In this document: piece by piece, positions 1-6,802 of the stretch
Layout: each line of letters starts with the position of its first letter
Position numbering within the stretch: position 1 is the stretch's first letter
Notes under the pieces: model-generated
Databases searched by the model: none
Told to the model about the DNA's origin: nothing
Seen by the model: the letters and a program-made list of their open reading frames with translations, nothing else
Position numbers and translations under genes: made by a program
Source: a virus
DNA: 6,802 nt
IMG/VR virus record: IMGVR_UViG_3300011982_000008
Coordinates: 1 to 6,802 of that record
Direction: 5' to 3' (one strand)

Positions 1-77
1 CAGACCCCCACCCCTGTACTAGACAAACAGAATTACTCACGCGCACGCACGTATAGAGGTCACGCGCGCACGATTAG
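1..77. repeat. Terminal redundancy of the linearised circular genome (identical to 6726-6802)
   Basis: I compared the 77 nt at 1-77 (cagacccccacccctgtactagacaaacag...cgattag) base by base with 6726-6802 and they are identical. A direct terminal overlap of this kind is an assembly signature of a circular molecule. The unit genome is ~6,725 nt. Confidence 0.95.
38..72. repeat. Two alternating purine-pyrimidine (Z-DNA-prone) tracts: CACGCGCACGCACGTATA (38-55) and CACGCGCGCACG (61-72)
   Basis: Alternation is perfect for 18 and 12 nt, separated only by GAGGT. The two tracts are also imperfect direct repeats of each other (CACGCGC(A/G)CGCACG). They sit immediately next to the G4/hairpin element in the circular map. 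Confidence 0.5.
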
Positions 78-90
78 TAATATAGGGGTG

Positions 91-120
91 AAAAACTGAG
101 CAAATGTGCTGTCAGTTTTT
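91..120. terminator. Bidirectional terminator-like hairpin flanked by A5/T5: AAAAACUGA-gcaaaugugcug-UCAGUUUUU
   Basis: The 9-nt arms aaaaactga and tcagttttt are reverse complements, with an extra GCA/TGC pair inside the loop. Read on either strand it gives a stem followed by UUUUU. It is positioned where a minus-strand transcript leaving VP2 would end, after crossing 850 down to 121. The stem is short and AU-rich at its ends, so strength is uncertain. Confidence 0.35.
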
Positions 121-129
121 CCAATAGTA

Positions 130-420
130 AACAAGGCGATGGCATAACGCGGAGGGTTATGCAGATAACGATGTATGCTTTGCGAATAGTCCGCTCGATG
201 TGGTCGCTAGCGCTATGCACTTCGCTTACGCTCAGCTTAAGGCCGCTCGTCGCGGCCTGTTTTCGCTACCACTTCGCTGCATCACCTCACTTCGTTCGGT
301 TCTTCGCTCGTGCTAACGCTCAAACAAAGGGTGTATAAGGGCGTTCGTTCCTCACGCTATGCGCTCATAAATTTCGCGCGTGTGTCTTACGCGCCGTTCG
401 TCACGGCGCGCGCTCGTTGC
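130..420. other. Non-coding GC-rich island (~57% GC against ~35-40% elsewhere) with CGCT/TTCGCT motif saturation and multiple short GC stems
   Basis: Per-60-nt GC counts are 53%, 62%, 50% and 63%. There are ~15 copies of CGCT in 230 nt (CACTTCGCT at 218 and 270, TTCGCTCG at 303). Hairpins are GGCCGC-ucguc-GCGGCC followed by UGUUUU (241-263), GCGCG-N9-CGCGC (375-393) and CGCGCCG-uucguca-CGGCGCG (389-409). By hand translation the minus (genic) strand has stops in all three frames. The plus strand has only a 59-aa ORF (159-338) of implausible composition. Confidence 0.5.
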
Positions 421-452
421 AGAGTTAATGGTAAATGTTAATAAGTATTTAC

Positions 453-503
453 AAATGGTTCGATATTTATATTTTGCGTTAAAATATGTATTAAAATGGT
501 TCG
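453..503. repeat. Second direct-repeat pair: AAATGGTTCG at 453-462 and 494-503 (41-nt spacing)
   Basis: Exact 10-mers, each followed by a T/A-rich run. They lie between the GC island and the 27-nt repeats. They look like a possible binding-site array together with the GTTAA motifs. Confidence 0.4.
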
Positions 504-514
504 TTTTTTATAGT

Positions 515-594
515 GTCGCGTAAAATTTGTTAACTGCAACACCTAAAATATTAACAATATTTAGATTGTCGCGTAATTTATGTTAACTGCAACA
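515..594. repeat. Iteron-like direct repeats: two 27-nt copies, GTCGCGTAAAATTTGTTAACTGCAACA (515-541) and GTCGCGTAATTTATGTTAACTGCAACA (568-594), 53 nt apart
   Basis: They are 24/27 identical. Blocks of 9 and 12 identical nt flank a 6-nt variable core. Each is preceded by TAG(T/A)T. Each contains the HpaI palindrome GTTAAC and the partial palindrome TGTT-N6-AACA. They are embedded in a region with recurring GTTAA(T/C) motifs (424, 436, 530, 551, 583, 626). Confidence 0.55.
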
Positions 595-710
595 AAACAA
601 AATAACACCACACTTCACAGCGCAGTGTTAATAAAAAATAAATAAACTAATCAATGAATGAACTTAAAAACCAAAAAACTTAAATTTGCAATAAACTAAA
701 TGAACTAAAT

Positions 711-854
711 ATGAATTACAACGAAAATTACTACAAAGAAAAAGCAAAATTGTTCAAAACAATTCGAATTGTACTCATCTGTATAGCATTAATACCTATC
801 ATAATGATAATAATGATATTCGGAATGATGGCAATACAAACAATACTTGATTAA
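711..854 (+). CDS. Antisense small single-pass membrane protein ORF (47 aa, MNYNENYYKEKAKLFKTIRIVLICIALIPIIMIIMIFGMMAIQTILD)
   Basis: ATG at 711, TAA at 852-854; I translated it by hand. The product has a charged N-terminus and then a ~27-residue uninterrupted hydrophobic helix. It is the only plausible ORF on the strand opposite all other genes, and it converges on the VP2 stop with a 3-nt overlap. AT-rich DNA readily yields Ile/Leu/Met-rich ORFs, and microviruses are not known to use the antisense strand, so confidence is low. Confidence 0.2.
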   Translation: MNYNENYYKEKAKLFKTIRIVLICIALIPIIMIIMIFGMMAIQTILD

Positions 855-2158
855 CGACTTTGCAGATAACCGTCTAATGCATCGGCAATAGCATCATCAG
901 AATAGTGTTTTAAACGCTCGACAAGTTCCTCATTACTATTATAATTAAAGCCAAGAGACGTTGCAATCTTGCTCCAAATCAAATCACCCTTTTGCATTAC
1001 GAATTGTTGAAGATTTTGAGGACGTTGTTTCTGCATAATAGAAGCCAATCGTTCAGCACCGCCAAAGAAATACTCAAACTCAGATAACTTAGTTTTCTGC
1101 GCCTCAGTCAATGTTTGTTGGCCAAGCAATTGAGCATAACGTTGTTGTGTTTGAACATTCTGGTTATTTAATCTTGTAGCAGACCTATTTAGGTCAAATT
1201 GACTACCTAACACACGTGTTTCAGCGTTAATCTTTTGATATTCGGAGCGAAGATTAACTAATTGTTGCTGCAATATCTGCAATTGTTCGGGCATGAGATA
1301 CCCAAGATTATACTTCTTAGTAAGATACTCGATATTGAGATTTTTCTCAGTAACCTTGCCATTAATAATATCTTGAGTAAGCTTATCAATCGTTTTAAAC
1401 AACTGAACATTCTCACCACGTGCTCGTTGTTCGGCCAATGTGACAGGACGACCAGTAGCCTCATCAGTCAGAGGTACACCATTGGAATCGTATGCTTGCA
1501 GTTGAGACATAGCATTTTGAATTTCAGTAGCAAAAGCAGAAGCAGCATCAACACGAGCAGCTTGCTTACTTTGTTCAAGCCGATTGAGCGTTTCCTGCGC
1601 TTGCGCACCAGCTTTAGCACCAGTAGCAGCATTAGTGATTTTATCAGCGGCTTTTTGGTTACCAAAATCATAATCAGCTTTCTCGTAAGCTAAACCTTGA
1701 GCCAAGTAATTACCTACTTGGCCGAATGCATCACCTAAACCATCTAATAGATTTTGACTAGTGTTAGCAGATGGAGCGGCTACGGAATTACCTAAGTTAG
1801 TACTATTGGCTATACTAGCACTACTTGCAGCAGCTTGGCCATTATACAAATAAGGGTTATAACCGGCATCCTCAATACGCTCACGAACAGCACTCTCGTT
1901 ACTCCATGCTCTATTCTCTGCATTAACCTTATCCTGATAGGCCATTTGTTGAGCATTCACCTTATCTTGTTGTTCAACTTGCTTTTGCCACATTTCACGC
2001 TGAAATGCTTGGTCACGCTTTTGTTGAGAATTACCGCCAAACAATTTCATTGCGCCACCTACTACAGCAGCACCGGCACCAATAAGGGCAGGAATAATAT
2101 GTTTTTGACATTGACAATTATTTAAATTTTCAATAGTCCAATATCTAATTTTAATCAT
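851..2158 (-). CDS. Minor capsid / DNA pilot protein (VP2-like), 436 aa from ATG 2158 (449 aa if the upstream GTG at 2200 is used)
   Basis: The long ORF is open to 2200, but the codon at 2200 is GTG and the first ATG is at 2158-2156 (MIKIRYW...). Between them sits a GC hairpin plus U-tract (2164-2198), so I prefer the ATG. The N-terminus has a Gly/Ala-rich hydrophobic segment (IIPALIGAGAAVVGGAMKLFGG), followed by a long Gln/Ala-rich predicted coiled-coil region. This is the architecture of microvirus VP2/H pilot proteins. TAA at 853-851. Confidence 0.6.
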   Translation of the reverse strand: MIKIRYWTIENLNNCQCQKHIIPALIGAGAAVVGGAMKLFGGNSQQKRDQAFQREMWQKQVEQQDKVNAQQMAYQDKVNAENRAWSNESAVRERIEDAGYNPYLYNGQAAASSASIANSTNLGNSVAAPSANTSQNLLDGLGDAFGQVGNYLAQGLAYEKADYDFGNQKAADKITNAATGAKAGAQAQETLNRLEQSKQAARVDAASAFATEIQNAMSQLQAYDSNGVPLTDEATGRPVTLAEQRARGENVQLFKTIDKLTQDIINGKVTEKNLNIEYLTKKYNLGYLMPEQLQILQQQLVNLRSEYQKINAETRVLGSQFDLNRSATRLNNQNVQTQQRYAQLLGQQTLTEAQKTKLSEFEYFFGGAERLASIMQKQRPQNLQQFVMQKGDLIWSKIATSLGFNYNSNEELVERLKHYSDDAIADALDGYLQSR

Positions 2159-2163
2159 AAGCC

Positions 2164-2198
2164 ATAAAAATAAGGCTGCCCGCCTAATGGCAGGCAGC
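2164..2198 (-). terminator. Intergenic hairpin plus U-tract (intrinsic terminator/attenuator-like) just upstream of the VP2 ATG
   Basis: Plus-strand positions 2175-2184 (gctgcccgcc) pair with 2189-2198 (ggcaggcagc). That gives a 10-bp GC-rich stem with one mismatch and a TAAT loop. On the minus strand it is followed by CUUAUUUUUAU. It lies between the 38-aa ORF stop (2206) and the VP2 ATG (2158), and overlaps the GTG-initiated N-terminal extension of the long ORF. Confidence 0.4.
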
Positions 2199-2205
2199 AC
2201 AAGGG

Positions 2206-2322
2206 TTAGACTTCACTGGAATCACTCTTTTCAGATTTTTTCTTAGCAAATGTTTCAGGCAATTGCTTGAGAAAAGGGAGAAGCAACTCGATAATAAACA
2301 AAATTTTCTTAAAGATTTTCAT
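2206..2322 (-). CDS. Small Lys-rich ORF (38 aa, MKIFKKILFIIELLLPFLKQLPETFAKKKSEKSDSSEV) between VP3-like and VP2-like genes
   Basis: ATG at 2322-2320 and TAA at 2208-2206. The product has a hydrophobic N-terminal half and a Lys-rich C-terminal half (8 Lys). It is immediately followed by the hairpin plus U-tract at 2164-2198. It could be a J/VP8-like small DNA-binding or membrane peptide. It could equally be a chance ORF in AT-rich intergenic DNA. Confidence 0.3.
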   Translation of the reverse strand: MKIFKKILFIIELLLPFLKQLPETFAKKKSEKSDSSEV

Positions 2323-2367
2323 AACTAAATTACTTTAAATTAATAATAATATTGAACTAAAAAAAAA

Positions 2368-2781
2368 CTATTCTGTAGGAGAAACATCAGAAGCAGATTC
2401 AACAGGTTGAGCCTGATTAACACCTTCCATAAATTCCTGATACTTCATACCAACAAAATCCCAATCAGTAAGAGTATTATGATACCTGGAGGGCAAGAGG
2501 GCTGCCAAATCCTCATCAGAAACATCATTACGAGAATTAGCAGGAATTTCCTGTAACATACTCATAATACGCTCTTTTTCTGCCAATGTAACAGAACCTG
2601 ATAACAACTTAGTTACAGGGTTTTCACGATTACCAGTGACAGAATCAACAGGCGCGACCACATCAATAATTTCCCTAATCTCATGGTTAAGGCAGGGGTT
2701 AGAGGGCTTAGCAGGAATAGCCAGTAACTTATCACGCTGGTCGTCAGTCATATAAGAAAAAACAACTTCAATTCTATCCAT
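2368..2781 (-). CDS. Putative internal scaffolding protein (VP3-like), acidic, 137 aa
   Basis: ATG at 2781-2779 lies 5 nt after the VP1 TAA (tight packing). TAG at 2370-2368. The protein is Asp/Glu-rich and ~140 aa, and its position between capsid and pilot genes matches gokushovirus VP3. I cannot confirm homology by eye. Confidence 0.5.
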   Translation of the reverse strand: MDRIEVVFSYMTDDQRDKLLAIPAKPSNPCLNHEIREIIDVVAPVDSVTGNRENPVTKLLSGSVTLAEKERIMSMLQEIPANSRNDVSDEDLAALLPSRYHNTLTDWDFVGMKYQEFMEGVNQAQPVESASDVSPTE

Positions 2782-2786
2782 AACAA

Positions 2787-4442
2787 TTAAATACTAGGTA
2801 AACCATCAACAGACATATCACTTATCTTAGTAATTCCAAAATAACAGCCACCAAACAATTGGTCAGTCAACTGACTACCATTGTAAGACACTGCAAAGAC
2901 AGAATCACACCATTTAGGACTGATTTTCAACAAATCAATACCAAGAGTCTTGTTAGCCGTAAAATCGTCAGACAAAGACCGATTACGGGCAATAGTCCAA
3001 AAAGACAATGGTGCAAAGGCACCAAATTGACCGTGGTTAACATCCATAGCTGTTTTGTATTCAGAATACCGCAGTTGCCAACCAAGGGGGTAATCAGTGG
3101 AAGGAACAGCCTTTGGTGTAGTATCACTAGGAGTCGGAATCATATCGGTAACATTATGGAGCAAAAGAGGCTGCATACCTAAATTTTCAAACTCAGGTAT
3201 AAAATAATCACCGCGAGTTACTTTTTCAACAAAGGGGTCAACACGAGTACTATCATATTGCATGGCAGGCACAGCAGAGTAGATACACATCAAAACACCA
3301 TGTTCCTTTGCATCAAATGAAATGTGACCAGAACCTTCAGCTATAGATTTGCCGACAACCTTGCCAAGATAACCGGCATCAGAAGTAGTACCAGAAGTGC
3401 CAGATGTCTGGGTAACATCACCTACATTAAAATTGCTGTCAAAGCCACCAATATAGAATACTTGACCATCACGACCTTCAGACACTTTTACACCAAAATG
3501 CGCCTCAACTTGTTCGGCATAAGTCTTACCGGCACGCATAGAAATGGACAACATCTTATCCAATGCAAATGCAGAGCGAATAGAAGACACATCAATACGC
3601 CCATCATTATTTGTCCTCTTATAGAATACACTCTTATTATCAAGGGTACCAAATGAGGAATTATTACCAGAGATACTGAGAGCATTACCTAAATTGGAGG
3701 GCATGGAAATGAGAGGAGAAGGGCGCAGATTAGTCAAATAGTCAGAGGGAGCATTACGATAACGAAGTTTCAAAAATCTATCAAAAAAAGATTTACCAGT
3801 GAAAAAGCCGCTAACATCATCAAAATTAAATGAAGCTACATCATAAGGCTCAAAAATGTTGTTACGATAGAAATCGGAATATATTTTCTGATAGGCGGCT
3901 GCACGAAATGGAGTAACAGAGCCGTTGAAGATATAATCAAACTTCTTAGTTTTACCCAAGTCAACAGGATAACCATAGCCAAAAAGGTCAAGCAATCTAA
4001 TGGCATTATCTTTCGAAGAGAATCCAAAAATATCTTTGGCAGTCTGGTCAGTATCAGGCAGCTTAAGAATATGTTCAAACAATTTTGAACGCTCTACACG
4101 AGGAACAGAAAGGTCAGAAGAATATTTACCGATAAATATAGAAGACTTGACATCATTCGTATTTACAAGGAACTGGTCAAACAAATGCCACATTTGAGAA
4201 TAAGGCACAAAAAAGAACTCATAAACACCGCGAAGTGACATGAATGCAGCACTATTCATTGGGAGAGTACGCATAAAATCACGCGCATTTATCTCAACAT
4301 GGTCATGCGGAATCAAATCCAAAGACAACACAGGCAGCAAGGCACCAACAGGGGCGGTAAACATGTGCCGTTGGGATAAATCAAACGCATTTCGCGGTCG
4401 ATTAGCCTTACTAGGCCGAATATCCAATTTTTTAACACTCAT
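2787..4442 (-). CDS. Major capsid protein (Microviridae VP1/F-like), 551 aa
   Basis: ATG at 4442-4440 and TAA at 2789-2787, both verified. The N-terminus NRPRNAFDLSQRHMFTAPVGALLPVLSLDLIPHDHVEINARDFMRTLPM...GVYEFFFVPYSQMW matches the conserved Microviridae VP1 pattern (R-N-x-F-D-L-S...G-x-L-P...D...P-x-D...R...FFVP-x-x-x-W). Size is typical for VP1. No SD upstream. Confidence 0.9.
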   Translation of the reverse strand: MSVKKLDIRPSKANRPRNAFDLSQRHMFTAPVGALLPVLSLDLIPHDHVEINARDFMRTLPMNSAAFMSLRGVYEFFFVPYSQMWHLFDQFLVNTNDVKSSIFIGKYSSDLSVPRVERSKLFEHILKLPDTDQTAKDIFGFSSKDNAIRLLDLFGYGYPVDLGKTKKFDYIFNGSVTPFRAAAYQKIYSDFYRNNIFEPYDVASFNFDDVSGFFTGKSFFDRFLKLRYRNAPSDYLTNLRPSPLISMPSNLGNALSISGNNSSFGTLDNKSVFYKRTNNDGRIDVSSIRSAFALDKMLSISMRAGKTYAEQVEAHFGVKVSEGRDGQVFYIGGFDSNFNVGDVTQTSGTSGTTSDAGYLGKVVGKSIAEGSGHISFDAKEHGVLMCIYSAVPAMQYDSTRVDPFVEKVTRGDYFIPEFENLGMQPLLLHNVTDMIPTPSDTTPKAVPSTDYPLGWQLRYSEYKTAMDVNHGQFGAFAPLSFWTIARNRSLSDDFTANKTLGIDLLKISPKWCDSVFAVSYNGSQLTDQLFGGCYFGITKISDMSVDGLPSI

Positions 4443-4453
4443 AAGACAAAAAT

Positions 4454-4540
4454 TTAATAACTAAAAATGTAAAGAATAAAACAAATAAATGCAAGCATTA
4501 AAGCAAGAACTAATATAACAAACAAATCATCACTTTTCAT
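4454..4540 (-). CDS. Tiny hydrophobic peptide ORF (28 aa, MKSDDLFVILVLALMLAFICFILYIFSY) filling the Rep-VP1 gap
   Basis: The ATG at 4540-4538 starts 1 nt after the Rep TAA (TAA-T-ATG). The TAA at 4456-4454 lies 11 nt before the VP1 ATG. The product is a single predicted transmembrane helix with a short charged N-terminus. The T-rich strand could produce such an ORF by chance, so confidence is low. Confidence 0.25.
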   Translation of the reverse strand: MKSDDLFVILVLALMLAFICFILYIFSY

Positions 4541-4541
4541 A

Positions 4542-6245
4542 TTAATCAATTTTGCGACTACCAAATAAAACACTATTATTCAACTTCTTAGACTTATTAC
4601 GTTTAGCCAAGCGTTGAAGTTGCTGATTAACATACACTTCAAAAAATGGAGTAGAACAAATGGAATTAAAAACTACTTTATAATAGTCCAATTTACCATA
4701 AGTATAAAAATCACCAAATTCGCACAACTCATCGAGGAATACACGAACATAGGGGTTAGTCATATCAATAGGACTATCACCAAACATAGGCATATTTTCA
4801 GACAATAGCGGATAAGCATCTATCATAGCAGGCTGAAAACCAACCTCATCAACCAAATCATTAAACAAAGTATAGAATTGTATCAATTGGTCAGACTTAC
4901 GCAGAACATCAAACTTATCTAACATCATCACATAAGCGTGAATATCATCTACATAGGGATAAAATCGAGTAAAATTAACCAAACGAACAACTCGCCAAGC
5001 ATGCCGAGAACAATACCAATTTTGGTCAGTATCCATATCAAGAATATTATACTCAAACTCATGATAACGCTTAAGCCAATTCCTATATTTCATATTCGGA
5101 AACTTTCGCAGGTAATCCGTTTCCGAAATTTCATATACAGAATTGTGCGCAGAACTATTTGAATAATAGATAATAGACAATTCTAAGTCTTGTTGCCATT
5201 CAGCTCGATGTCTAGAATAGAATGAATACAATTGTAATTTAAAGTCAAAAGATAAGTCACTATATCCTTTACATTTGCGGAATAAGGAATTGCACAAATC
5301 TGAGTTAAGCGGAATATCAAAGTGTTCGAATTGTTGAGATTGTCGGTTATAGACTTCTCGACCAACGCGGTAAGTTCCTCGATAGACATTTTCGAATATT
5401 TCCTCTCGGTCAACTTTGTAACAACCAATAACTGGGCTTTTAGACTGAATATGAAACGGGCGCGAAGACTTATACTCCAAAACTTGAGGTAAACCAAGAT
5501 TGCCACTAACATACTCCGCAACATAATAGGCTGTGTTCGCATCACACAATTTGATGTAATCTTTGGTAAGGTGTATATTCGCATACGGCCGAAAGTGAAA
5601 AGAATTGCGCTGTCCTCTAACACGTTCGAATTGACCCCACGAACGTACGACAATATCCTTAATCTCTCTGAGAATAACCTCATTATCGAAGAATAAGACA
5701 CCATGATAATGCGGACGATAGGTCTGCGGTCCATATTCGGATGCAATGAAATAACGAATTTTTTTGTCATCATCAATTATATTTAGTTTATCTATCCAAA
5801 AGCGAACACGCTTAATAAAATTCTGAATATCCTTCTTACAACAAGTAGCAAACATATCACCATCACAATCACCTTGAATAACAGGAAGATATGTTTCATA
5901 ATCAATATTCCATTTACCTTTAACCTTATCAAAGTAATTTAAAGGACAAGAATTAAACATGTATTCAACACGACCAATAGGACGTATTTGAGGGCAATCG
6001 TTAGAATCCAAGAATCTTTCCCAACGTGGAATAAACTGATTATCGTAAGTCAAAGTAAACATCATTGAATACTTATGCTTATTTATTTCCTCACGAACAC
6101 GATTAGATTGTTTTGAAGCGGCAGCATTAAGACACGCAGCACACTTACCACAAGGGACAAACATATCCTCGTGTGTCCAGCGGTTAAATGTACGAATAGG
6201 AGCAATACAACCGCCAAATACTTTATAAGCACTAGAATCCATCAT
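4542..6245 (-). CDS. Rolling-circle replication initiator protein (Microviridae VP4/Rep, HUH endonuclease), 567 aa
   Basis: ATG at 6245-6243 and TAA at 4544-4542, both verified on the minus strand. The translation carries the N-terminal Cys cluster PCGKCAACLN (zinc-finger-like, as in gokushovirus VP4), RCR motif I FTLTYD, HUH motif II RPHYHGVLFF and motif III AYYVAEYVSG (paired catalytic Tyr, YxxxY spacing). The ATG overlaps the TGA of the upstream 96-aa ORF (ATGA). At 567 aa it is much longer than the ~300-350 aa typical of gokushovirus VP4, with a ~230-aa C-terminal extension of unknown function. Confidence 0.9.
   Translation of the reverse strand: MMDSSAYKVFGGCIAPIRTFNRWTHEDMFVPCGKCAACLNAAASKQSNRVREEINKHKYSMMFTLTYDNQFIPRWERFLDSNDCPQIRPIGRVEYMFNSCPLNYFDKVKGKWNIDYETYLPVIQGDCDGDMFATCCKKDIQNFIKRVRFWIDKLNIIDDDKKIRYFIASEYGPQTYRPHYHGVLFFDNEVILREIKDIVVRSWGQFERVRGQRNSFHFRPYANIHLTKDYIKLCDANTAYYVAEYVSGNLGLPQVLEYKSSRPFHIQSKSPVIGCYKVDREEIFENVYRGTYRVGREVYNRQSQQFEHFDIPLNSDLCNSLFRKCKGYSDLSFDFKLQLYSFYSRHRAEWQQDLELSIIYYSNSSAHNSVYEISETDYLRKFPNMKYRNWLKRYHEFEYNILDMDTDQNWYCSRHAWRVVRLVNFTRFYPYVDDIHAYVMMLDKFDVLRKSDQLIQFYTLFNDLVDEVGFQPAMIDAYPLLSENMPMFGDSPIDMTNPYVRVFLDELCEFGDFYTYGKLDYYKVVFNSICSTPFFEVYVNQQLQRLAKRNKSKKLNNSVLFGSRKID
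5183..5776 (-). CDS. Candidate overprinted gene: 197-codon ORF in the +1 frame inside Rep (ATG at 5773)
   Basis: Same strand as Rep. The frame offset (6245-5776=469, remainder 1 mod 3) shows it is the +1 frame. It is open for 594 nt in a ~37% GC genome, where other off-frame ORFs top out at 65-80 codons. It starts TTG-ATG-ATG (MMMTKKF...), encodes a basic Leu/Ile/Arg-rich product, and spans the Rep HUH and Tyr motifs. It is analogous to gene B inside gene A of phiX174. Confidence 0.3.
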   Translation of the reverse strand: MMMTKKFVISLHPNMDRRPIVRIIMVSYSSIMRLFSERLRILSYVRGVNSNVLEDSAILFTFGRMRIYTLPKITSNCVMRTQPIMLRSMLVAILVYLKFWSISLRARFIFSLKAQLLVVTKLTERKYSKMSIEELTALVEKSITDNLNNSNTLIFRLTQICAIPYSANVKDIVTYLLTLNYNCIHSILDIELNGNKT

Positions 6246-6532
6246 AATATACGATATACAATCCTACATTTATGGTCAATAGTACTAGAGTCAGCAAACT
6301 CAAGGACTTCAAAATCAATAAGAGTTTTGAGAGAGCCAAATAATTTGTCAAGTTCAGAGGTATATCTGTCATCATAATACAAGATAAAGCCTACTGAAGT
6401 AGGATGCAAATGAATTAACTCAAAATCACTTCCAAGAAGTGTCCTAAGAAACAGGCGGTAAGAATAATACTGAAATGTTCTCATCTTTAAGTTATTTTTT
6501 AATTCAACGGCAAAGATAGAAAAAATAAACAT
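6242..6532 (-). CDS. Hypothetical protein, 96 aa, translationally coupled to Rep
   Basis: ATG at 6532-6530 is verified. The TGA at 6244-6242 overlaps the Rep ATG at 6245-6243, giving the classic ATGA coupling overlap. It is on the same strand as all structural genes and is the first ORF downstream of the putative promoter region. No recognisable motif. It is not strongly basic, so it is probably not a J/VP8-type DNA-binding protein. Confidence 0.5.
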   Translation of the reverse strand: MFIFSIFAVELKNNLKMRTFQYYSYRLFLRTLLGSDFELIHLHPTSVGFILYYDDRYTSELDKLFGSLKTLIDFEVLEFADSSTIDHKCRIVYRIL

Positions 6533-6697
6533 AATGCCAATTATGAAAATGAAATTTATCGAATATATTTAACAAATATTACTACACCCACCCACCTTTT
6601 TAACAAAAATATGAAATTCCCAAAAACACACATACAATAAAACTTCAATAGAAGAATATAAGTTAAAGAGAATTAGATAAATACACATGTTAAGATA

Positions 6698-6728
6698 CTG
6701 GGGGACGGGGCTCCGCCCCATCCCCCAG
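6698..6728. promoter_or_regulatory. Strong G/C hairpin in the control region (14-bp stem, one C·A mismatch, TCC triloop)
   Basis: CTGGGGGACGGGGC-tcc-GCCCCATCCCCCAG; I checked the pairing position by position. It lies ~165 nt upstream (on the transcribed strand) of the first gene (96-aa ORF, then Rep). It is the only such GC-rich structure in the otherwise AT-rich upstream region. Candidates are a Rep-recognised origin hairpin, a packaging signal or a terminator of read-round transcription. Confidence 0.5.
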
Positions 6729-6739
6729 ACCCCCACCCC
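6716..6739 (-). other. Canonical G-quadruplex motif on the minus (predicted virion/mRNA-sense) strand: GGGG-T-GGGGG-TCT-GGGGG-AT-GGGG
   Basis: Read directly from the sequence. The plus strand has C-tracts 6716-6719, 6722-6726, 6730-6734 and 6736-6739 with 1-3 nt spacers (i-motif-capable). The complement therefore has four G-tracts of at least 4 with loops of 1, 3 and 2 nt. The motif overlaps the 3' arm of the hairpin at 6698-6728, so the two structures are mutually exclusive. Confidence 0.5.
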
Positions 6740-6802
6740 TGTACTAGACAAACAGAATTACTCACGCGCACGCACGTATAGAGGTCACGCGCGCACGATT
6801 AG
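6726..6802. repeat. Second copy of the terminal overlap (= 1-77); not an independent locus
   Basis: Exact duplicate of 1-77. Confidence 0.95.

Follow-up and report, generated by a model that had tools for sequence, protein, structure and literature searches.

A GC-rich island in the main intergenic region

The IMG/VR virus record IMGVR_UViG_3300011982_000008 was analysed over its positions 1 to 6,802 (hereafter, the window), with attention to a GC-rich island located downstream of the gene for a pilot-like protein. Bases 1-77 are an identical copy of 6726-6802, which makes the window a complete circular genome of 6725 nt, and the intergenic region is therefore a single stretch of ~1043 nt (6533..6725/1..850). 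According to the list of open reading frames (ORFs), all large ORFs belong to the - strand and include the pilot-like protein, the major capsid protein, and the replication initiator (Rep); the window is a microvirus genome whose - strand is the gene-sense strand. In Microviridae the packaged strand is this same gene-sense strand. Read along it, with window coordinates running downward, the gene cluster ends at a hairpin termed P0, followed by the island and then by a conserved core (Table 1; all feature coordinates were verified against the sequence). The phage is a temperate Prevotella microvirus, the close relatives of which integrate at a dif-like site. The island itself is a real, non-coding element that is conserved in position, structured with covariation, and strand-biased.

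Regarding base composition, GC content equals 55.3% at positions 130-420 and 36.1% in the remaining genome, with a maximum of 58% in the 100-nt profile. These values are close to the ~57% and ~37% given in the initial annotation, which had been made from the letters of the window. The sense strand of the island is purine-rich and T-poor (17.5% T vs 36% elsewhere). The tetramer CGCT has 13 copies in the island, or 44.7 per kb vs 1.9 per kb elsewhere, and the bias is specific to the + strand (13 copies of CGCT vs 1 of AGCG). The count exceeds the mononucleotide expectation by a factor of 7.5 and the mean of dinucleotide shuffles (5.2 +/- 1.8) by a factor of 2.5, and none of the 1000 shuffles reaches 13. 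The enrichment reported initially is thus reproduced; its ~10-fold magnitude, however, depends on the null model. Similarly, the bounds 130-420 enclose a real island but only a part of the structured region, as the island proper covers ~165-424 and the adjoining core extends to ~90. The three GC stems with TCGTC-type loops noticed earlier are all present, at 389-411 and 241-257 (loop TCGTC) and at 341-357 (loop TCGTTCCTC).

No conserved ORF was found on either strand of the island: among 14 relatives the stop-free stretches shift in frame and position, which agrees with the absence of coding capacity proposed at the outset. The 59-aa ORF at 159-338 of the + strand has no Pfam or PHROG family match. 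Its description as antisense to every gene is wrong, since a conserved 47-aa gene occupies the + strand at 711-854. The initial annotation had also considered a non-coding RNA; the window matches no Rfam 15 family at E <= 1 and contains neither a tRNA nor a tmRNA. For five relatives spanning the four island types described below, the sole Rfam match is RsaF with E = 0.31, far below the gathering score and at chance level.

Sequence databases gave equally negative results. An exact 38-mer from the island has 0 matches in IMG/VR, and neither blastn (word size 11) with positions 1-850 nor megablast with the whole genome finds a match among the INPHARED phage records (50,697 in the blastn search). 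The type-1 island shows no blastn similarity to 72,556 plasmids. A short query from the core was too short for blastn to be sensitive. The element is not described in the literature searched and is unannotated in deposited genomes.

Conserved structure and exchangeable island types

The 13 IMG/VR relatives found via the pilot protein show a GC-rich peak at an equal distance downstream of the pilot gene wherever the contig is long enough, and a protein search returned 116 pilot homologues, many of them on contigs of 50-430 kb. Contrary to the possibility raised initially that relatives might lack the island, a GC-rich island fills this same site, which separates P0 from the core, in nearly all relatives with a contig extending that far. 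Distant GenBank microviruses from human gut and rodent faeces also carry an island at this position.

At least four unrelated sequences occupy the slot between P0 and the core. Type 1 is found in the window and 11 relatives, type 2 in L008, L009, L205, and L207, type 3 in L001, L004, L010, L193, and the GenBank record OR149004, and type 4, which is shorter and has 40-45% GC, in a distant clade. Types 1 and 2 share their architecture, and types 1-3 share the GAGGWACGA hairpin. Closely related phages nevertheless differ in type: L205 (type 2) and L010 (type 3) have 96%, 90%, and 93% identity in Rep, capsid, and pilot protein, respectively, and the Rep proteins of L194 and L196 (type 1) are 87-88% identical to those of L001 and L004 (type 3). 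According to fur identity, one host group contains types 1 and 2, and another contains types 2 and 3. The island types are exchanged as a cassette, independently of Rep, capsid, pilot protein, and host species. The island is a cis or trans element, the sequence of which can be replaced wholesale with phage proteins and host unchanged.

The conservation of AAGGGGGTATAGGGGGCTTTGCCCCCATAGCG, a 32-nt type-3 module, far exceeds that of the DNA around it: 12 deposited microviruses, sampled from humans, pigs, and rodents, carry it with 85-95% identity, and all of these matches are unannotated. In the three records inspected (OR149004, PV067920, and PQ006894) the module lies in the DNA after the pilot gene; PV067920 additionally has a P0-type hairpin, and both PV067920 and PQ006894 have the CTTGT..AAAA(C/G)TGAC core. 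As for pattern searches, the promoter-region pattern gave four loci in metagenomes, all matching the intergenic region and with L194 alone spanning the whole of it, and 0 loci in species genomes. Short-pattern scans of IMG/VR (ACTCTGCARCGAGCG, GTGAGGAACGAACG) returned mostly chance matches, and a re-screen with the core motif yielded only duplicates of known relatives. The IMG/VR contigs of L002, L004, L006, L009, and L012 end within or just before the island, possibly owing to low coverage or difficult assembly over the G/C hairpins, or to strains that vary in island type.

The structure was built by hand on 11 type-1 islands and contains 69 pairs. Its positions are 95.9% paired, compared with 36-44% when the partners are slid by 1-3 columns, and 19 pairs are compensatory (with changes on both sides), compared with 2-5 when slid. 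In none of 500 shuffles were the observed pairing, compensatory cells, or covariation score matched, although with so few sequences compared (11-19 distinct ones, some of them related) the shuffle statistics overstate independence. Six relatives have an inserted domain of ~50 nt that extends a small hairpin and possesses covarying stems of its own (GAC/GUC, GUC/GAC, and GCC/GGC). In P0, Pa, Pc, and Pd, constant loops sit on varying stems.

As for the strand, the shuffle z-scores of the window are -3.1 (RNA parameters) and -2.9 (DNA parameters) for the sense strand vs -1.5 and -2.75, respectively, for the antisense strand. The minus strand thus folds moderately better than its shuffles, and this result, together with the covariation among related microviruses, bears out the structured character suggested in the initial annotation. 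Of 14 islands representing all types, 13 have the lower z-score on the gene-sense strand. Paired columns contain 25 G-U vs 12 A-C combinations; the support that this excess gives to the sense strand is modest, because 91% of paired cells are Watson-Crick.

Along the sense strand, P0 is called terminator-like and is present with covarying stems in 14 relatives among those scanned, type 4 included. The AT-rich spacer that follows is absent from type-2 relatives; its 27-nt repeat GTTGCAGTTAACAnAnnTTACGCGACA has two copies in the window and one in most type-1 relatives, and could represent an operator or a solitary CRISPR-repeat-like unit. Inside the island, the type-2 counterpart of Pa is GGGGGGG-UAACGA-CCCCCCC. 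The stems of Pc vary (GCGU/ACGC, GUGC/GCAC, GUGU/ACAC, GUGCGC/GCGUAC) around a loop that is constant in types 1-3 and also occurs in PV067920, and variant stems of Pd in relatives keep a GACGR loop. The 9 bp of helix P3 are paired at 96%, with exchanges of U-A to A-U and C-G at two positions, one of which has all three pairs, and one invariant U-G. In the core, 19 sequences from four island types keep Pe 100% paired, and all four Watson-Crick pairs occur at one of its positions. The partner arm of Pf is located 3' in types 1-3 and 5' in type 4, i.e., a fixed sequence forms its hairpin differently.

Several further pairings were considered and rejected. The 5' boundary of the island could pair with CUUGUU (130-135) and thereby close the island, but this helix (AACGAG/CUUGUU) is invariant and was dropped for lack of covariation, as was the pairing of the variable dinucleotide before CUUGUU with upstream GAUGC words. 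Two other interactions, a kissing contact between the CCUCC loop and GGAGG words and a pairing that involves the leader GGUGGG, are inconsistent across relatives.

Downstream of the core, the two (GY)n repeats are conserved in every clade, type 4 included. Any two of these tracts can pair on the sense strand via G-C and G-U, and they are Z-DNA-prone. The G-rich hairpin at 6698-6728 and the sequence upstream of it to 6745 contain four G-tracts on the sense strand and hence have quadruplex potential. At this site relatives have other GC hairpins or long G/C homopolymers (L209, L008), and some have runs of N.

Promoters were scanned with TAnnTTTG (the Bacteroidetes -7 box), as a sigma-70 scan is uninformative for Bacteroidota. 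Conserved boxes were found at two gene-start places, those of the 47-aa gene (681-688) and the main cluster (6604-6611). Of the 17 scanned relatives that carry types 1-3, 13 have a sense box at 187-336 nt beyond the core, and this box acts as a positive control of the scan. Within the window lineage (the window, L003, L011, L196, L200, and L201), no box was detected on the sense strand from P0 to the island, over the 70-170 nt that precede the latter, and none on the antisense strand near the island.

Table 1. Features of the island region and of the genome. Coordinates refer to the window unless another record is named.
Feature	Coordinates	Strand	Description
Hairpin P0	603-630	-	12 bp, GUGA loop, tandem U-G/G-U, U-rich tail; end of gene cluster and upstream limit of cassette slot
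AT-rich lineage-specific spacer	between P0 and island		27-nt direct repeat GTTGCAGTTAACAnAnnTTACGCGACA at 593-567 and 540-514
GAACCATTT words	453-461 and 494-502		two, in AT-rich spacer
Type-1 island	165..424	-	GC-rich structured non-coding cassette; aligns 70-82% with L005, L003, L011, L007, L194
Island 5' boundary	411..424	-	CUCUGCARCGAGCG (CUCUGCAACGAGCG in window); types 1 and 2; near-invariant in 14 sequences
Hairpin Pa	389..411	-	9-bp G/C stem, loop GACGA; compensatory at two pairs, G-U to G-C at a third
GCGC hairpin	379-361	-	inside island
Hairpin Pc	341..357	-	4-bp stem, constant 9-nt loop GAGGWACGA (GAGGAACGA in window)
CCUUAUACA	340-332	-	inside island
Long-range helix P3	310-318 with 264-272 (264..318)	-	encloses purine-rich variable segment
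Hairpin Pd	241..257	-	GGCCGC-GACGA-GCGGCC; 100% paired, two compensatory pairs
Conserved AGCGCUAGCGACCACA	214-199	-	inside island
Hairpin Pe	142..162	-	7-bp stem, loop CCYCCGN (CCCUCCG in window); first element of core common to all types
Single-stranded tract CCUUGUU	127..137 (CTTGTT = 130-135)	-	CTTG invariant in 19 sequences; also in PV067920, PQ006894
Hairpin Pf	90..121	-	GAAAACTGAC hairpin, built on invariant GAAAACUGAC; AAAACTGACA invariant
Two (GY)n direct repeats	37-51 and 60-72 (= 6762-6776, 6785-6797)	-	CGUGCGCGCGUGA, CGUGCGUGCGCGUGA; downstream of core
Strong G-rich hairpin	6698..6728	-	6726-6728 = bases 1-3 of circle
-7 box of main gene cluster	6604-6611	-	Bacteroidetes type, TATTTTTG; follows AT-rich stretch, then att core
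Attachment core	6530-6545	-	dif-like, CATAATTGGCATTATG; overlaps first start codon
96-aa protein	6242-6532	-	
Replication initiator (Rep)	4542-6245	-	PHROG 942, Pfam REP_ORF2-G2P
Major capsid protein	2787-4442	-	Pfam Phage_F, E = 4e-28
137-aa protein	2368-2781	-	
Pilot-like protein	851-2200	-	gene stop at 851
47-aa membrane peptide gene	711-854	+	single helix; overlaps pilot gene stop, convergent; borders the island's intergenic region, outside island
-7 box of 47-aa gene	681-688	+	Bacteroidetes type, TAAATTTG; perfect, conserved in relatives
att repeats in provirus L196	5598-5614 and 12270-12286		
att repeats in provirus L198	~5531-5547 and 12130-12146		
AAGGGGGTATAGGGGGCTTTGCCCCCATAGCG module	L001 3253-3300; L231 3201-3241; L232 3401-3451		also OR149004, PV067920, PQ006894 and nine more

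Candidate functions of the island

The reading favoured here, held with roughly balanced confidence, is that the island is a modular single-strand (complementary-strand) origin cassette on the packaged strand. Every microvirus needs a complementary-strand origin, and the near-universal presence of the island at a fixed position is as expected of an essential replication element. Such an origin had already been proposed in the initial annotation, and it is the best-supported explanation; position, covariation, strand preference, cassette exchange, and the lack of a conserved promoter box ahead of the island in the window lineage support it indirectly. It is unproven, however, as a sense-strand RNA would yield equal covariation and strand bias.

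We infer that the folded molecule is DNA rather than RNA. Once circular single-stranded DNA (ssDNA) is injected, hairpins Pa, Pc, and Pd together with the long-range helix P3 would fold, resist coating by single-stranded DNA-binding protein, and present the constant loops (GACGR, GAGGWACGA) to a priming enzyme of the host, for which primase, the PriA primosome, and RNA polymerase are candidates. A primer made at the island would allow host polymerase to convert the ssDNA into the double-stranded replicative form. Unrelated types 1-4 could then replace each other by recombination because the element would rely on host factors and not on phage proteins. The core directly 3' of the cassette (CCYCCG hairpin, CTTGTT, and GAAAACTGAC hairpin) would correspond to the Rep-dependent plus-strand origin, and CTTGTT might be the Rep nick site. 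The core is read in this way because it is invariant and because CTTG/TT loosely resembles CAACTTG/ATATT, the nick site of the phiX174 ori. A scan of the sequence for the phiX174 ori, however, found nothing above chance.

Among known systems, the origins of phiX174 (a PriA primosome assembly site) and G4 (three primase-recognised hairpins) are similar to the island in being non-coding, hairpin-rich, and located on the packaged strand in a microvirus intergenic region. Both the G4 origin and the island contain several stable G/C hairpins, and those of the island (Pa, Pc, Pd, and Pe) covary. In contrast to these origins, the island has no sequence similarity to either, is 3-5 times longer, and shows a long-range helix, an optional domain, and several unrelated exchangeable versions; its host belongs to Bacteroidota, and its origin role is predicted from sequence. 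A possible likeness to the pUC/ColE1 region, and to the word AAGCGG that n' sites contain, was not confirmed by the literature searched and is not used.

Single-strand origins (sso) of plasmids form five unrelated classes, are orientation-specific, measure 160-340 nt, act via structure, occur in shuffled cassettes, and rely on the RNA polymerase, primase, or primosome of the host (PMC5703833, PMC4595007). Like those of rolling-circle plasmids (ssoA, ssoU, ssoT, ssoW, as well as ssoL) and sso1 of ICEBs1, the island combines short conserved motifs with variable stems. Unrelated sso classes are exchanged among related replicons; likewise, there are four island types, and phages with 87-96% identical Rep differ in type. 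The island resembles an sso (150-350 nt, structure-dependent) in size and structure and keeps a constant orientation relative to the genes, while an sso is orientation-specific in its function. The sso of rolling-circle plasmids is located upstream of the double-strand origin, and the island upstream of the core, if the core is the Rep origin. The ssoA type has the conserved motifs RSB and CS-6 (TAGCGT); neither was identified in the island, which also has no match to plasmid records and belongs to a phage of a Gram-negative anaerobe. A likeness of the TAGCG words in the island to CS-6 was rejected, as these words lie in stems and not in a terminal loop. Also unlike the case of sso, two island types are found within one host species, and host range is not an obvious driver.

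The packaged strand of Ff phages (M13/f1/fd) carries in its intergenic region a terminator, minus-strand priming hairpins, the plus-strand origin directly 3' of them, and the next promoter. This order is mirrored by P0, island, core, and -7 box, again if the core is the Rep origin. The island, however, shows no sequence similarity to the Ff region and is more GC-rich and more variable, and no packaging-signal role is expected in a microvirus. Within small Microviridae, intergenic hairpins of reekeekee- and roodoodooviruses have compensatory substitutions and have been proposed, without proof, as minus-strand origins (PMC9865509). Those hairpins are single and 13-64 nt long, while the island is multi-domain, covers 260-400 nt, and undergoes cassette exchange. 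The BMV / 'Alpavirinae' proviruses share with the window the gene set, a size of ~6.1-6.8 kb, a Bacteroidales host, the absence of an integrase, and dif-like att repeats suggestive of XerC/D integration, although that work contains no description of a GC-rich island, its structure, or its types (PMC3091885).

Several observations weigh against an origin. The predominance of Watson-Crick helices makes the strand assignment weak, and the z-scores under DNA parameters are near-equal between strands. The invariant U-G within P3, like the tandem U-G/G-U conserved in P0, is more usual in RNA hairpins than in those made of DNA. With 260-400 nt, a long-range helix, and an optional inserted domain, the island is more elaborate than the phiX174 and G4 origins, and it is not similar in sequence to any known origin. 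Just upstream of P0, six relatives have TAnnTTTG boxes on the sense strand, in L008 with TTTG 18 nt before the box, and these could drive an RNA that starts at P0 and includes the island, or could be chance matches in T-rich DNA. Finally, Pf is terminator-like after the island in types 1-3. Some of these points favour a structured non-coding RNA (ncRNA) from the gene-sense strand, either an independent gene or the processed 3' end of a late transcript, that acts in trans or in cis. We regard such an RNA as the main competing explanation, to be taken seriously but less probable than an origin. High GC content in an AT-rich genome combined with multi-helix covariation is a classic structured-RNA signature, the sense strand folds better under RNA parameters, and the loop of P0 is of GNRA type (GUGA) with tandem G-U; an RNA accounts for GC content, G-U pairs, this loop, and the discrete types as well as an origin does or better. 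Proposed roles include RNA-based immunity or lysogeny control, host manipulation, and transcript stabilisation, and the discrete types would then result from diversifying selection, as in heteroimmune regions of temperate phages. That near-identical phages, and likewise a single host species, have different types is in line with cassettes for specificity or immunity, and Pfam and PHROG searches and provirus look-ups revealed no repressor-like protein in this temperate phage. On the other hand, the window lineage has no conserved promoter box before the island, late transcripts should stop at the terminator-like P0 upstream of it, the Pf arm of type 4 is not followed by a terminator shape, and Rfam gives nothing at E <= 1 besides the chance-level RsaF. 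The island also occurs in almost every relative, distant gut microviruses of lytic appearance among them, which better suits an essential cis element. Microviridae are not known to have an ncRNA, and none was found in the literature searched. It is rather doubtful that the island is the first structured ncRNA family in Microviridae, with exchangeable RNA cassettes for immunity, specificity, or Prevotella manipulation that the provirus would express or that would be made in infected cells; such cassettes would lead to unrelated types in near-identical temperate microviruses of one host species.

The remaining explanations are less probable. An action as double-stranded DNA, either as a plus-strand-origin accessory (a Rep-binding or enhancer region, or iterons) or as a Xer accessory at att, is improbable, even though the island adjoins a conserved core that is possibly the Rep origin, contains repeated words (three copies of GCGAAGTG in the window, tandem units of 21 nt in L010, and two copies of GGCTGATCTAA in type 4), and belongs to a phage that integrates at a dif-like site; plasmid Xer sites do use accessory sequences. 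Island type is independent of Rep (different types accompany 96% identical Rep), so the field of Rep-binding iterons suggested initially is not supported. Furthermore, compensatory changes keep intra-strand pairing, which a duplex binding site does not need, and the att core is ~350 nt away with other elements between and no second dif-like copy in the island. A folded ssDNA attP of the CTX-phi kind, with two inverted dif-like sites, was rejected as well: apart from the att core at 6530-6545, the sole other near-match (3 mismatches) is at 800-815, outside the island. A host fragment, an assembly chimera, or a functionless selfish insertion is very improbable. The base composition of the island is sharply unlike that of the genome, and the contig ends mentioned above lie in or near it, but circles and proviruses that were assembled independently, from many samples and with many assemblers, have the same element at the same position, which refutes the capture and chimera proposed initially as alternatives. 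The island is located wholly inside the provirus, ~350 nt from the right junction, and is GC-richer than the host flank (~40% GC); a 19-mer from it has only chance matches in unrelated phyla among 185,579 species genomes, plasmids and deposited phages give no match, and its pairs are maintained by compensatory substitutions. The least probable function is that of encoding a small protein. Besides the 59-aa ORF, a 118-aa sense-strand ORF is called over the island in L196 and L197, but the long frame of L196 does not stay open in its closest relatives or in the window, open stretches differ among the 14 relatives, indels of 1, 2, 4, 10, and ~50 nt occur, and Pfam and PHROG give no matches.

If the island is an origin, it belongs to a known functional class; what is new is its sequence family, its modular set of hairpins, and the exchange of cassettes in a phage. 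These microviruses of Bacteroidota are among the commonest phages in the human mouth and gut. For the start of second-strand synthesis in such ssDNA phages, the island offers a concrete candidate with defined hairpins, constant loops (GACGR, GAGGWACGA, and CCYCCG), and natural swap variants as ready-made experiments. As an origin, it would represent a new modular class of single-strand origin and a useful part for ssDNA vectors in Bacteroidota. If the island instead acts as RNA, this virus family would gain its first structured ncRNA, which might be an RNA-based lysogeny or immunity module in a phage with no recognisable repressor.

Neighbouring gene, host, and integration site

The 47-aa gene on the + strand is called as a gene in the relatives L196-L199, L205, and L206, and its product could have a lysis, exclusion, or toxin-like role. 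Genes on the complementary strand have been reported as almost unknown in Microviridae (PMC3394797).

The relatives exist both as free circles and as Prevotella proviruses. At both ends of the proviruses L196 and L198, the junctions contain CATAATTGGCATTAT(G/A) as a direct repeat, the same as window positions 6530-6545. Dif-like, integrase-less integration is described for Bacteroidetes microvirus proviruses (PMC3091885), and the att core of the window fits it. All close relatives looked up as proviruses (10 look-ups) are inserted between rpsA and fur-hisS-purA. According to a homology search, the host histidyl-tRNA synthetase (HisRS) is 98% identical to that of Prevotella conceptionensis, the host assignment being based on this one flanking protein.

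A more distant clade of proviruses is integrated at another site. Within it, L211 and L212/L213 have an identical pilot protein and the same left host flank (a 5'-nucleotidase gene), while their right flanks differ after ~7790 (TetR and malic enzyme in L211 vs a 663-aa protein and AspRS in L212/L213), which suggests a host rearrangement or a second integration context.

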